Source: a virus
Lineage: Duplodnaviria; Heunggongvirae; Uroviricota; Caudoviricetes
Strand: one strand, 5' to 3'
IMG/VR virus record: IMGVR_UViG_2565956724_000002
DNA: 25,326 nucleotides
Positions 1 to 8,463 of this stretch are shown one piece after another. The stretch's first letter is position 1, and the number at the start of each line of letters is the position of its first letter. The notes under the pieces were generated by a model. The model had not been told where the DNA came from. It saw only the letters and a list, made by a program, of their open reading frames with translations, and did not search any database. Position numbers and translations under genes: made by a program.

Positions 1-1149
<1,149 letters not shown>

Positions 1150-1159
1150 AGCGCCCCTA

Positions 1160-1187
1160 CAAAAAAGAAAAGCCACCAGCGGCGGCT
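1160..1187 (-). terminator. Putative intrinsic terminator downstream of ref
   Basis: On the minus strand a GCCGCC-GCU-GGUGGC hairpin is followed by a T-run (plus-strand A-run 1161-1170). Confidence 0.4.
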
Positions 1188-1337
1188 TAGCAATACAACT
1201 GAAGGTAGCGCCCGGTACTCAGACTGTGCCGTCCATGGAATATTTGAAAAGGGATCCATCCGTACCGGGCGTGTGATGATTCTGACTCAAGTCACTTGTC
1301 AGTTGTCAATCATTTAAGATTAAAAATAATATATTTA

Positions 1338-1898
1338 TTAGTGCATGATGTTTGCCATTTCATAGGCGTCAGCCAGCAACTCCATCTCTGACTTGTTCAA
1401 CAAGGTGAATTCTTTCTTGCCTCCTACCACGCCATCGGCATGAACAGGGACCAGCCAGGGGTATTTTTCTCTTACTTCAGCCGGTGCTGCATGCTGGTGG
1501 TGCCATCTGCAAAGGGGCAATTGCTTTTTGTGACAACCCGGCGCGGTACGACCGGAGATATGGTGCAGAGACACCTCTTCAGATATTACTCCATGCATGT
1601 AGCAGGCAATGCAGGGGAGAGTGCCAAGAGCATTGGCGATGGTCCGTTCCTCCGCCGTCGGTGTTCGCCCCTTCAAGCCACGAGATTTTATTTTTACCGC
1701 ACTTTTCCGCGTTTTGCTGGCTGGTGGGCGCTCTTTCTGTTTAGCGATACGGCGGTCGATAGAATCCCGCATTTTCTGATATTGCGATTCTCGCCAGGCG
1801 GGGTCAGCCAACTTTTCCCGTTGCCGAGCGATCGCTCGTTCTCTGGCTGCCTTCTGCCACTCGCGGCGCTGTTCAAGTTTTTGTTCGATTGTTTTCAT
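1338..1898 (-). CDS. ref: Ref, recombination enhancement function (HNH-type endonuclease), 186 aa
   Basis: From the internal Met, MKTIEQKLEQRREWQKAARERAIARQREKLADP... matches P1 Ref as I recall it. The HNH-like motif CRWHHQH is visible. The ORF track's N-terminal extension back to 1976 runs through a hairpin and is probably not translated. Confidence 0.88.
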   Translation of the reverse strand: MKTIEQKLEQRREWQKAARERAIARQREKLADPAWRESQYQKMRDSIDRRIAKQKERPPASKTRKSAVKIKSRGLKGRTPTAEERTIANALGTLPCIACYMHGVISEEVSLHHISGRTAPGCHKKQLPLCRWHHQHAAPAEVREKYPWLVPVHADGVVGGKKEFTLLNKSEMELLADAYEMANIMH

Positions 1899-1903
1899 AT
1901 GGC

Positions 1904-1929
1904 AAAAAAAAGGCGGCCTAATGGCCGCC
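1904..1929 (-). terminator. Hairpin plus T8 immediately 5' of the ref start codon (terminator or attenuator-like)
   Basis: Perfect stem GGCGGCC / GGCCGCC (1912-1918, 1923-1929) with loop TAAT. On the minus strand it is followed by eight T (plus-strand A8 at 1904-1911). Confidence 0.5.
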
Positions 1930-1996
1930 AATGATGTCAAGGAGTGAAGTAATGGCAACGTCTTCGTAGTTGACAAAAACTGCGGCTAAATTATAG

Positions 1997-2013
1997 CAAT
2001 CAATTAGAGCAAT
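1997..2013 (-). promoter_or_regulatory. C1 operator-like site upstream of ref (Op2-like)
   Basis: The reverse complement, ATTGCTCTAATTGATTG, matches the P1 C1 operator consensus ATTGCTCTAATAAATTT at 14 of 17 positions. Confidence 0.6.
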
Positions 2014-2145
2014 GGTAGATATTTTGTTTCTCGCGAATCACATTTTTTCACTTCAGTACCTGTGTGCTATACTCCTTCTTGATTGATTGGATGCGGAATA
2101 CAAACCCGCTCTTTTGTGCAGCCTGGCTCCTTGCCAGGCTTTTTT

Positions 2146-2457
2146 TTATTTCATCATGGAAGCTGTTAACGCTTTGGACCTTGCTGAACTGATTGAAAGG
2201 GCATTGTTTACCTTACCCAGGAGTTCGCCAAATTCCCCCATCACTCTAGTAAGCCCGCGCCGCGCTTCCTCCTCCGTTGCATTCATCACAAAATGTTCAG
2301 CACTCCGCATGCTTTTAACGGGGAACGCAACAGATATCGAGTCGATATCAGGCATCCTATCGCTCAACTTTACGGTGACAATGACAGATGGCGACAGAAT
2401 ATTAGTGCTTACAGACAGCACTACATATTTTCCGTCGATGTTGAAATCCTTTCTCAT
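2146..2457 (-). CDS. Hypothetical protein between cre and ref (cra-like by position)
   Basis: 103-aa minus-strand ORF, same strand as cre and ref. GGTGG sits just upstream of the ATG, and a C1 operator-like site lies at 2474-2490, immediately upstream. Confidence 0.5.
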   Translation of the reverse strand: MRKDFNIDGKYVVLSVSTNILSPSVIVTVKLSDRMPDIDSISVAFPVKSMRSAEHFVMNATEEEARRGLTRVMGEFGELLGKVNNALSISSARSKALTASMMK

Positions 2458-4692: not shown

Positions 4693-5544
4693 ATGATAAA
4701 TTATGTCTACGGCGAACAACTGTACCAGGAGTTCGTCAGCTTCAGGGATCTCTTTCTAAAAAAAGCTGTTGCACGCGCCCAACACGTTGATACAGCCAGC
4801 GACGGTCGTCCTGTACGCCCGGTTGTCGTTCTACCGTTCAAAGAAACTGACAGCATTCAGGCTGAAATTGATAAATGGACTTTAATGGCGCGGGAACTGG
4901 AACAGTACCCAGACCTCAATATCCCAAAGACTATTTTATATCCAGTGCCTAACATCCTTCGCGGTGTGCGTAAGGTTACAACTTATCAGACAGAAGCTGT
5001 GAACAGCGTCAACATGACCGCTGGCCGCATTATTCATCTGATTGATAAGGACATTCGCATCCAAAAAAGCGCGGGGATCAATGAGCACAGTGCGAAATAC
5101 ATAGAGAACCTGGAAGCAACAAAAGAGCTAATGAAGCAGTACCCGGAGGATGAAAAATTCCGTATGCGCGTACACGGCTTTAGCGAAACAATGCTGCGCG
5201 TCCACTACATTTCCAGTAGCCCTAACTACAATGATGGTAAATCAGTTAGTTACCATGTGCCACTGTGTGGCGTGTTTATCTGCGATGAAACTCTCCGTGA
5301 TGGAATTATCATCAACGGTGAATTCGAAAAAGCAAAATTTAGCCTTTATGACTCCATAGAACCGATCATCTGCGACCGCTGGCCGCAAGCAAAAATATAT
5401 CGCCTGGCAGATATTGAAAATGTAAAAAAACAAATTGCCATCACTCGCGAAGAGAAAAAGGTTAAGTCAGCCGCATCAGTTACGCGCAGCCGTAAAACCA
5501 AGAAGGGGCAGCCAGTAAACGACAACCCCGAAAGCGCGCAATAA
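4693..5544 (+). CDS. c1: C1 repressor of lysis, 283 aa
   Basis: MINYVYGEQLYQEFVSFRDLFLKKAVARAQ... matches P1 C1 in sequence and length. Strong RBS GGAGGAGG upstream of the ATG at 4693. Confidence 0.95.
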   Translation: MINYVYGEQLYQEFVSFRDLFLKKAVARAQHVDTASDGRPVRPVVVLPFKETDSIQAEIDKWTLMARELEQYPDLNIPKTILYPVPNILRGVRKVTTYQTEAVNSVNMTAGRIIHLIDKDIRIQKSAGINEHSAKYIENLEATKELMKQYPEDEKFRMRVHGFSETMLRVHYISSSPNYNDGKSVSYHVPLCGVFICDETLRDGIIINGEFEKAKFSLYDSIEPIICDRWPQAKIYRLADIENVKKQIAITREEKKVKSAASVTRSRKTKKGQPVNDNPESAQ

Positions 5545-5576: not shown

Positions 5577-6695
5577 TTATTCAGCCGCCACCGGTTTTAA
5601 CAAGCCAGCATCGAGCAGTTTACGCGTCAACCACTGCTGGCCTTTACCCGTTAATTGAGGCGTCAACCGTATCTGGTAGCCATCTTCATCATCCAGCACC
5701 ACTTCTTTCACCGTGAAATACCCCGCGTTGATGTACTGCTGGAACGGCACATTTTTACGTCCACCGGACGCTATCAGGATGCCGTTCTCCCGTAACCAGA
5801 CAAACAGCGCGTTTTGCTTAAGTCCAACAACCTTTGCAAAATTCCCAATCAGGATCCCTTTAGCTACTGATACCCGGTCGGCAAAATCGACTTTAGGAGC
5901 GGCGGCCACCAGCTGCTGATTTAGCTGGTGGGCTTTCTGTTCCAGAAGTTGCTTTTGTTCAGCCAGTTCGGCAGCCAGGCGTAGGGCTTCAGGAAGCGTC
6001 TGGGGGATTGCGATCGGTTGCTGTTCTTTTTGTCGGAAGTAGCTGTCTTCCAGTTTTTCAAAGAATGCCCATGCCTGATCGGTTTCGAGCATTTTAGCGT
6101 GGCGGGCTGCGCCGCGTTCTGTCCAGAGGGTGAGTGAGCGAACATTGCGAGCAATTTTTACAGAGTAGTTTAAAGCTACTCTGTGCTTCAACTCGCGCAA
6201 TGATTCTCCTTCAACTTTGAAAAAGTGCTTCCCTTCAACAAAGCGTACTTTGTTCTCATGATGATTTTGGCGAATACGGATTGTTTCTGTCCCATACCCT
6301 CTAGCAAGAGTCTCGGTTGTCACTACACGCACTCCCTGCCATTCCAGAACGGGAATTTCATCAGACTGATTCTGAACAACCACCAGCTCCGATTCCTGAA
6401 CTGAAGGTGCATGAATTTTTTCTGATTTAACGTTAGTTGCTTTCATTCTGTGTGCCTCCTTGCGTGATTCGGCTGCGGCGGTTGCGTAATTCAGATGCCC
6501 CTGTTCGAGCAGGTATTCGCGGATATCAGACAGCAGGATGCGGTGAACTGCGTTCTTGTCCTTTCTCCGGTAAAGTTGTTTGGTGATCATGAAGTAGTTG
6601 GCAATAACGCCCGGTATATCCCTAGTACTGATACAGGCAGTGTGCTGTTCAATTGCCTCGATCATCTCTTCACGGGTAACTAATGACGTTCTCAT
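5577..6695 (-). CDS. Phage antirepressor-like protein (ORF6N/Bro-N-like central region, KilA-C-like C-terminus), 372 aa
   Basis: The central segment VLEWQGVRVVTTETLARGYGTETIRIRQNHHENKVRFVEGKHFFKVEGESL and the C-terminal segment ...LFVWLRENGILIASGGRKNVPFQQYINAGYFTVKEV... resemble these domain families from memory. The ATG overlaps the upstream ORF's stop (ATGA). Confidence 0.6.
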   Translation of the reverse strand: MRTSLVTREEMIEAIEQHTACISTRDIPGVIANYFMITKQLYRRKDKNAVHRILLSDIREYLLEQGHLNYATAAAESRKEAHRMKATNVKSEKIHAPSVQESELVVVQNQSDEIPVLEWQGVRVVTTETLARGYGTETIRIRQNHHENKVRFVEGKHFFKVEGESLRELKHRVALNYSVKIARNVRSLTLWTERGAARHAKMLETDQAWAFFEKLEDSYFRQKEQQPIAIPQTLPEALRLAAELAEQKQLLEQKAHQLNQQLVAAAPKVDFADRVSVAKGILIGNFAKVVGLKQNALFVWLRENGILIASGGRKNVPFQQYINAGYFTVKEVVLDDEDGYQIRLTPQLTGKGQQWLTRKLLDAGLLKPVAAE

Positions 6696-6913
6696 AGTCC
6701 CTCCTGAGCAGAAGCGTTAACAGGGAGGCACCAGTAACTGAGAGAATTGCGTGAATCAGTGGAAAAACGGGCAGAGAAAATACATGGGGCGTCAGGAAGC
6801 TGAGAATGGGCCTCATCTTCTGTCGGTGCAATAACGAAGTGATAGTGACGTTTTTGGCAGGAGTAAAAGCGCCAGATAAATTCAGGATGAATTGGGGTAG
6901 GGACAGTAGCCAT
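6692..6913 (-). CDS. Small hypothetical protein (73 aa), translationally coupled to the antirepressor-like gene
   Basis: AAAGGAGG lies about 8 nt upstream of the ATG at 6913. The stop overlaps the downstream start by 4 nt. Confidence 0.5.
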   Translation of the reverse strand: MATVPTPIHPEFIWRFYSCQKRHYHFVIAPTEDEAHSQLPDAPCIFSARFSTDSRNSLSYWCLPVNASAQEGL

Positions 6914-7098
6914 AATGGCAGCCTCCTTTGACTAAGTTAAGGAGCTACCGCGTGAGGTCTCAATCTCAATGGCGGTAGCACTGACTGGGTTGAGACTACC
7001 GGCGTCAAAGGGAACCGGCCTGCCTTTCGGCAGCCCAGCCAGCACTACCATTGATTTCGGAGCTAAACGCTACGTATGGCTGTGCGATGGCATGACAC

Positions 7099-7120
7099 AA
7101 AAAAAGACGCTTTCGGCGTC
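7099..7120 (-). terminator. Intrinsic terminator, minus strand (pacB 3' end and/or attenuator in the leader of the downstream operon)
   Basis: Stem GACGC / GCGTC (7106-7110, 7116-7120) with loop CGAAA on the minus strand, followed by U7 (plus-strand A7 at 7099-7105). Confidence 0.6.
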
Positions 7121-7244
7121 TGTGTCGCCTTTGACATTATCCGGGGTCTCAATCCCGGCACCCGTTTTAATGAGGTGCCTGATAAGCATAAACCGAAAAT
7201 GCCTCAAGGCGCAAGAGGTCAGGTTCAATGTAACATCGGCAGTC

Positions 7245-7261
7245 AAAAAACACAATTTATT
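7245..7261 (-). promoter_or_regulatory. C1 operator-like site just downstream of the pacB stop
   Basis: The reverse complement, CTTGCTCTAATAAATTG, matches the consensus at 15 of 17. Confidence 0.6.
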
Positions 7262-8463
7262 AGAGCAAGTGTTTATTCATTAAGCCATGCCAGAGCTTCA
7301 TCAACCTGCGCTTCGTCTTCGACGCTAAGCACTTCGTCCTGGGGAACATAATCCGCCAGCATAGCGAAACAATATGTATCCCAATGGTCTGGTGAGTGCA
7401 GGTTGAGTTTTTTCTTCATATCCTCCTTACTCATCACCTTCCATTGACCTGCGGAGTTAATCCCTACAGGGATTTTCGACGCTTCCTCAATAGTTTCATT
7501 ACCCTTATCCAGTCTCATACGACCAGATTTTACGGCCTCTGCGGCTTGAACGTTGGCATAAGCACGTTTATCAAAGTACAGGCTCTTATCTTCACGGCTA
7601 TGCATCTTTTTACCCCAGCGTATACGCTGTACGGTAATACCATAATACTCGTACATCAGATCCGCCGTTGCTTTACCCAGGCCATCGCCGTCTATCGCTA
7701 TGGTGATATTGGGGAATCGCTCAGGATTACATTCTGCGAAAATTTTGGCGGCAAGCTGCGTTTCTGTAACGTCTGTGTATTCCAGCATTCGATAGTTGAT
7801 TACACGGCGTTTATTTCGCTGGCCGGACACCATCATGATATTGATAAAGGACTTATCCCGTCCTGTACCACCAGCAACGTCCACACATGCAAGCCAGCCC
7901 CATCCTTTGGCAATCTTGACTTTCCGCCGCGTCGCACGTTCAACCTCATCACGTCCAAGAAGGAAGCCGTCCTGTAATTTAGGGAATAGGCCGCGTACCT
8001 TAATCATGTACATAGGGTTATCACGCCCGCCGTACTCCGCCAGCTTCATTTTGATAAATTCTGACGTTACCAGCGGTGATTCCTCACTGTTAAGCGTGAT
8101 CGCCGTATAAACGCCATCTGGGTTACCAGGACGCTTGGCCAGTTTATGGTGAGTATCGTAGAAATAGCCGCTTGGGCGTGTAGGCTGTGACAGTAATAAG
8201 ATGCGGTTATCCTGTCCGGTAAGAGCACCGGTGATGATACCGAAAGCTCTATCACTGACACCGGAGGCTTCATCGATAATATACAGAAGATGATCTGCGT
8301 GTTCACCGGCGAGAACTTCTTCACTTCCCAGACGAAAGCCCTTCGGTACTACAGTCCATACACCTTTACCAGTAGACTGGCCCCCTGAATCTCCAGACAA
8401 CCAGTATCACTTATTTAAGTGATAGTCTTAATACTAGTTTTTAGACTAGTCATTGGAGAGCAG

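Follow-up and report, generated by a model that had tools for sequence, protein, structure and literature searches.

A conserved terminator-like hairpin in the C1-controlled ref leader of a P1-type phage-plasmid

Introduction

Ref is a RecA-dependent nuclease that makes lysogens of phage P1 sensitive to ciprofloxacin and lowers lysogenisation (PMC4713147). The second effect is 40-fold; the gene stands under C1 control, and its RNA is induced 73-fold. That C1 binds at ref and represses it in P1 is known from the literature behind the P1 annotation and from PMC4713147, and a paper by Windle, Laufer & Hays (J Bacteriol 1988;170:4881) speaks, in its title, of attenuator-antiterminator control. In Gifsy-1, whose IsrK leader is a described relative in design, a short terminated RNA and a read-through mRNA both exist (PMC4825925).

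In this paper, we are concerned with one short piece of a virus genome: what lies between the C1 operator and the start of ref in the window, by which we mean the whole 25,326-nt stretch of DNA analysed? Judged from its sequence, the window is a P1-type phage-plasmid. Its gene order (ref, c8, cre, cra, lox, immC) is that of P1, and the 1.2 kb around the ref leader share 99.5% identity with phage phiW39 and 94.3% with P1 (reference AF234172; window coordinates equal those of L001 minus 201). Within that region, only 3 of the 300 nt of the intergenic sequence 1900-2199 depart from P1, whereas ref differs by ~5% and c8 by up to 18%.

Results

The ref leader and its hairpin

A sequence-only reading of the window had placed a C1 operator and then a perfect hairpin with T8 right before the ref ATG, and all of those coordinates are borne out. 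On the minus strand, the sequence runs from the C1 operator (2013-1997) through TATAAT (1995-1990), a leader of ~80 nt, the hairpin (1929-1912), T8 (1911-1904) and GCCAT to the ref ATG (1898-1896). The same reading had proposed a comparison with P1 upstream of ref; the hairpin, T8 and spacing are identical there. The features are as follows.

2013..2018, minus strand: -35 hexamer CTACCA of P2ref, homologous to the P2ref -35 in AF234172; a weak consensus match
1997..2013, minus strand: C1 operator Oref (former Op1/Op2a), ATTGCTCTAATTGATTG, from the consensus search and the P1 annotation; fills the P2ref spacer
1990..1995, minus strand: -10 hexamer TATAAT of P2ref, in the second copy of a 13-nt direct repeat, ATTGCTMTAATTK
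1931..1958, minus strand: predicted second promoter P1ref, TTGCCA-16-TGaCATCAT, from a promoter scan and marked "predicted" in the P1 annotation
1904..1986, minus strand: ref leader RNA of ~75-83 nt, folding into a 5' hairpin, ~25 nt of single strand and the terminator; putative start near G1983, judged from the -10
1936..1945, minus strand: pyrimidine-rich motif ACTCCTTGAC, conserved, in the single-stranded part of the leader
1912..1929, minus strand: terminator/attenuator hairpin GGCGGCC-ATTA-GGCCGCC, from the terminator scan and fold; identical in P1
1904..1911, minus strand: T8 (U8) tract, abutting the stem and ending 5 nt ahead of the ref ATG
1338..1898, minus strand: ref coding sequence, 186 aa, RecA-dependent HNH nuclease (Pfam PF16786, RecA_dep_nuc, E = 7.6e-50; P1 annotation agrees)
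1162..1188, minus strand: terminator-like hairpin with a T-rich tail 3' of ref, from the strict terminator scan

All seven pairs of the leader hairpin are G-C, its loop is 4 nt, and its predicted folding energy is -16.2 kcal/mol (z = -4.4); the predicted fold of the whole leader reaches -24.5 kcal/mol (z = -4.3). By its stem and its U-tract, the feature qualifies as a predicted intrinsic terminator. It is unidirectional: the U-tract lies on the ref strand only, and the plus strand reads AATGATG after the hairpin, so that a plus-strand role for 1912-1929 was rejected. A strict terminator scan of both strands of the 25-kb window found four sites, two of them within 150 nt downstream of a same-strand C1 operator, an association that would arise by chance with a probability of ~0.003 at a rough estimate. 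An Rfam covariance search of 1850-2200 gave 23.8 bits at best against a gathering score of 50, and permissive thresholds likewise returned no family.

The hairpin at 1162-1188 is the probable 3' end of the ref transcription unit. Also 3' of ref, where P1 has mat, the window carries a 185-aa ORF (619-1176, minus strand) without a Pfam match, and the composition of its first ~600 nt appears different.

Operator and promoters

Seven sites matching the C1 consensus were found in the window, where 0.04 were expected by chance. Oref, ATTGCTCTAATTGATTG, is one 17-bp asymmetric site of this kind, agreeing with the consensus ATTGCTCTAATAAATTT at 14 of 17 positions (three mismatches), and it is retained across 45 distinct leaders of the P1 clade. 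The P1 annotation describes a "monovalent C1 controlled operator Oref" that controls ref transcription and is overlapped by promoter P2ref; by homology, Oref in the window occupies the spacer between -35 and -10 of P2ref and thus overlaps the promoter elements of ref. Repression of P2ref by C1 at Oref is established for P1, and homology suggests that it holds for the window too.

The predicted promoter P1ref is another matter. Its start would fall within the 5' arm of the hairpin, and it is conserved neither in the Salmonella clade nor elsewhere outside the P1 clade.

Oref and P2ref together (1984-2013, minus strand) form a tandem 13-nt direct repeat, ATTGCTCTAATTG (the operator core) followed by ATTGCTATAATTT (which gives TATAAT). 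As a second operator, the repeat copy at 2000-1984 was rejected, with six mismatches to the consensus and with Oref annotated as monovalent in P1. In the plasmid CP058750, both copies are merged into one. A third copy of the 13-mer, ATTGCTMTAATT, occurs at 2475-2491 on the minus strand, between the cre stop and the c8 ATG, as ATTGCTCTAATTCTTTG (the P1 version is ATTGCTATAATT); an operator-like site and a -10-like element of c8 are candidate roles, and the P1 annotation puts Pc8 within cre, not there. A high-affinity H-NS motif at 2027-2033 (minus strand) reads CGAGAAA in the window and CGATAAA upstream of P1 ref (PMC4713147).

Where does ref start?

The open-reading-frame track extends ref upstream to a TTG at 1976, an N-terminal extension that the sequence-only reading had thought unlikely to be real. 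That doubt is upheld, and we reject the extension. Diverged Ref homologues start at or near MKT, in line with the ATG at 1898; at the Escherichia albertii locus, the hairpin loop contains an in-frame TAA; and in 20 of the 45 distinct leaders of the P1 clade, the frame ahead of the ref ATG runs into a stop within 6-13 codons because the T-run and other single-base positions change in length. Moreover, TTG 1976 would lie only ~7 nt from the expected start of transcription. The ORF 1338-1976 is, therefore, an open-frame artefact.

No Shine-Dalgarno sequence is recognisable between the U-tract and the ref start codon in any clade examined. Since a stable hairpin also lies 13 nt upstream, ref would probably be weakly translated.

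Conservation across the P1 clade and beyond

How much of this is held in place by selection? From 78 viral contigs of the P1 clade we obtained the 45 distinct leaders, in which the 7-bp stem is invariant save for its closing pair; at five loci, that pair reads GCT or GTT, which makes the T-run longer. The remaining variation in the hairpin falls in the loop (ATTA, ATCA or TAAA) and in the T-run (7-10).

Farther away, the Ref homologues of Salmonella and Klebsiella aerogenes (~65% identical) lie on ~90-kb P1-like contigs behind different upstream genes. Their order is a C1-like operator, TATAAT, a leader of ~75 nt, GACGGTC-TTCG-GRCCGTC, T5-8, and a GTG or ATG start 13-15 nt on. In these otherwise diverged leaders, the motif ACTCCTTGAC reappears as CTCCTCCTGAC, CCTCCCTGAC or ACTCCCTGAC. 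In a Pantoea element (Ref 61% identical), the operator departs from the consensus at one position and is followed by GCCGCC-TCCG-GGCGGC with T7, the terminator ending ~100 nt upstream of the ref ATG. In the Salmonella, Klebsiella and Pantoea clades, as in the window, the terminator stands between the promoter and the ref start codon.

When ten distinct hairpins were compared, every position of the stem was paired in every one of them, and two of the seven pairs had both members replaced, one from G-C to A-U and one from C-G to U-A, G-U pairs occurring as intermediates. P1-type and Salmonella-type hairpins may, however, be offset by 7 nt relative to a shared ACTCCYTGAC, in which event the hairpin would have been rebuilt rather than substituted pair by pair. 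Whichever alignment is taken, these comparisons indicate that selection acts on a hairpin and U-run in the ref leader rather than on one sequence.

The sequence-only reading had made much depend on whether related functional ref loci keep the hairpin, and here it fared well in part. The hairpin is present in P1 and in the Salmonella/Klebsiella and Pantoea clades; it is absent from L026 (Ref 66% identical), from Enterobacter, Pantoea and Citrobacter P1-like contigs with other operator types, and from chromosomal prophage copies with ref inside an operon. In a distant Ref clade (viral contigs L193-L204), a 12-bp perfect inverted repeat, TGTTAGAAAATC-N6-GATTTTCTAACA, lies ~80 nt upstream of the ref homologues, where it replaces both the C1-type operator and the terminator; it is probably the operator of another repressor.

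Plasmids without ref

Some ~48 PLSDB records of P1-like plasmids that lack ref span the junction equivalent to window position 1906. Their homology to the window ends exactly within the T-run, and a convergent icd-ant(KilAC) operon adjoins. Four examples that we followed (CP058750, CP117587, L205 and L206) retain the operator, the promoter repeat, the leader and the hairpin, with loops of ATTA, GAAA or GCAA; three of the four have an intact stem, and at one locus the stem carries a mismatch and the promoter repeat has collapsed. The module is kept without ref, and therefore, the terminator belongs to the promoter-leader module and would work independently of ref. In these plasmids, going by their layout, it would at minimum block the C1-controlled promoter from antisense transcription into ant.

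A plus-strand element beside c8

The intergenic region holds a second candidate unit, on the opposite strand.

2045-2073, plus strand: promoter-like site TTTTCA-17-TGnTATACT, followed by a small hairpin
2120-2148, plus strand: strong predicted terminator AGCCTGGC-TCCTT-GCCAGGCT with T8, abutting the c8 stop codon

The 111 nt of 2040-2150 are 100% identical in all 18 P1-like phage records, with flanks at 93-99%, and the element folds with z = -3.6. It could be an RNA of ~70 nt or a backstop terminator that shields c8 and cre from antisense transcription. It matches no Rfam family, and its complementarity to the ref leader is not significant (155 of 500 shuffles are as good).

The unit at 7.1 kb

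The sequence-only reading had drawn a parallel between the ref leader and a unit at 7245-7099, and it holds: an operator at 7269-7253 is followed there too by a terminated leader, which is isrK-like. This immI-like unit adjoins immC in the window.

7253-7269, minus strand: C1 operator of the immI-like unit, from the consensus search
7100-7178, minus strand: isrK-like RNA (RF01394; Rfam, 60 bits)
7105-7121, minus strand: terminator with T7 closing the isrK-like RNA
6968-7055, minus strand: C4 antisense RNA (Rfam, 75 bits)
6692-6913, minus strand: icd-like ORF, 73 aa
5577-6695, minus strand: antirepressor, 372 aa, ORF6N and KilAC, converging on c1 (4693-5544)

Discussion

What, then, does this short leader do? 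We think it likely that the 5' control region of ref works on two levels, with C1 acting at the promoter and an intrinsic terminator attenuating and insulating the gene of a toxic nuclease. In the lysogen, C1 bound at Oref in the spacer of the sigma-70 promoter P2ref would block initiation. P2ref transcripts that escape, and any read-through from cre and c8, would meet a strong terminator after ~80 nt; most would stop at 1904-1911 and yield a short leader RNA, as anatomy and conservation suggest. Only read-through transcripts (and perhaps those from the predicted P1ref, starting inside the hairpin) would carry ref, which has no Shine-Dalgarno sequence, and therefore, output would remain low. 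Such low output would suit a nuclease that is harmful to the host and reduces lysogenisation; because Ref lowers lysogenisation as strongly as it does, a second brake is plausible. A terminator of this strength is hard to square with the reported induction of ref RNA, unless a substantial share of transcripts reads through or comes from P1ref. Attenuation in the ref leader had also been the suggestion of the sequence-only reading, and it draws support from the operator and promoter annotation of P1, from the 1988 title, and from a hairpin and T-run kept across diverged clades.

Other readings of the same hairpin deserve to be weighed. To the simplest of them, a functionless palindrome thrown up by chance, we give almost no credence: besides the z score of the hairpin, both strands together (50 kb) hold only four such sites, the loop varies above an unchanging stem, and the structure is kept across clades with different sequences. 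A more serious contender makes the hairpin mainly an unregulated insulator, a module boundary that ends constitutive cre and c8 transcription, its place after Pref being incidental. The minus strand does have no terminator between c8 and Pref (the hairpin at the c8 stop faces the plus strand), the homology of ref-less plasmids breaks exactly inside the T-run, and ref in the Salmonella clade likewise lies behind same-strand genes. We find this reading doubtful all the same, since such a boundary could just as well lie ahead of the promoter, but it stands in three clades downstream of operator and promoter, where it must truncate P2ref transcripts too; moreover, insulation overlaps with the two-level control that we prefer instead of excluding it. 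Regulated attenuation, in which an antiterminator within the leader pairs with the terminator's 5' arm and read-through into ref is switched by a signal or factor, is possible, although we lean against it. The wording "attenuator-antiterminator" in the 1988 title speaks for it, as do the pairings themselves: without the 3' arm, GCCGC (1986-1982) of the nascent P1-type leader can bind GCGGC (1928-1924) and GUCAA can bind UUGAC, at -17.3 kcal/mol; in three leaders of the Salmonella clade (L107, L108 and L109), ACUGUC can bind GACGGU in the 5' arm; and the 5' hairpin (~1986-1955) could serve as an anti-antiterminator. But the alternative fold is less stable (-17 kcal/mol, against -25 for the terminator fold), the expected start at ~G1983 would cut off most of GCCGC, and the pairing has eroded in leaders of the E. 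albertii type and is lacking from K. aerogenes L024, where the terminator is still present. P1-type leaders also have no leader ORF beginning with ATG or GTG, which makes ribosome-mediated switching unlikely; trp-type attenuation by a leader peptide was rejected on that count and because the in-frame TTG frame is closed in those 20 of 45 variants.

There is finally the idea that the terminated leader is itself the product, a C1-controlled small RNA that acts in trans in the manner of IsrK or StxS, read-through into ref being secondary. The architecture is typical of small RNAs (a predicted 5' hairpin, 25 nt of single strand, a U8 terminator); a single-stranded CUCCYUGAC motif is common to several clades; the intergenic region is better conserved than the genes on either side; the ~48 ref-less plasmids retain promoter, operator, leader and intact stem with new loops; and the neighbouring C1-controlled unit opens with an isrK-like RNA, which has a dual role in Gifsy-1. 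We nevertheless judge it improbable. The leader matches no Rfam family, its single strand pairs with ribosome-binding regions within the window no better than chance would allow (12 of 200 shuffled seeds score equally well), retention in ref-less plasmids is explained as well by the prevention of antisense transcription into the convergent ant, and one ref-less locus has the mismatched stem and collapsed repeat described above. A broader version, to which we likewise assign little weight, would read the c8-ref intergenic module (1904-2148) as the source of two divergent small RNAs, both ending in a T8 terminator: the minus-strand, C1-controlled ref leader RNA of ~80 nt with its conserved single-stranded CUCCUUGAC, and the plus-strand RNA of ~70 nt. 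A module intact in ref-less plasmids and an invariant 2040-2150 in P1-like phages would fit trans-acting regulatory RNAs over mere punctuation.

How much of the two-level control of ref is new? Going by the 1988 title and by sequence identity, the hairpin at 1929-1912 is very likely the published attenuator of Windle et al., and the leader feature has, thus, almost certainly been described for P1 already and is not new. No usable transcript map of P1 ref turned up in the literature searched. What comparison adds is that selection has acted on the leader terminator as a structure in three or more diverged P1-like clades, that it survives the loss of ref, and that the absence of a ribosome-binding site is also conserved. 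For the annotation of P1-like phage-plasmids, the use is practical: reference records should show the terminator and leave out the extended ref ORF. The tightness of ref silencing matters biologically because the nuclease sensitises to ciprofloxacin and reduces lysogenisation (PMC4713147). No new question is opened unless the leader should prove to be a trans-acting RNA.

It remains to set the locus beside systems already described. The trp and his leader-peptide attenuators resemble it in having an intrinsic terminator between promoter and first structural codon, with possible alternative pairings, but the P1-type leader has no ATG or GTG leader ORF and its TTG extension is unconserved, so that ribosome sensing is unsupported. 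We know of no P1 antiterminator protein. In StxS of Stx phages (PR'/tR', PMC7547250), a promoter-proximal terminator likewise gives a short RNA and downstream genes need read-through, which is driven there, in contrast to ref, by the antiterminator protein Q. IsrK-type leaders (Gifsy-1, PMC4825925) share with the ref leader a repressor-controlled promoter, a short terminated RNA and downstream genes reached by read-through. The two show neither sequence nor Rfam similarity, and IsrK has been demonstrated to act in trans on its own long isoform. To our knowledge, nothing like this trans-action has been described for ref. Closest of all is the P1 ref region itself (Oref/Op2a, P2ref and the leader), in whose GenBank record, AF234172, no terminator feature is marked at the position of the hairpin. 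It is the same locus, with leader and hairpin identical, operator and promoter at homologous positions, the ref start shared and no functional difference, and the window is a phiW39-like variant of it.
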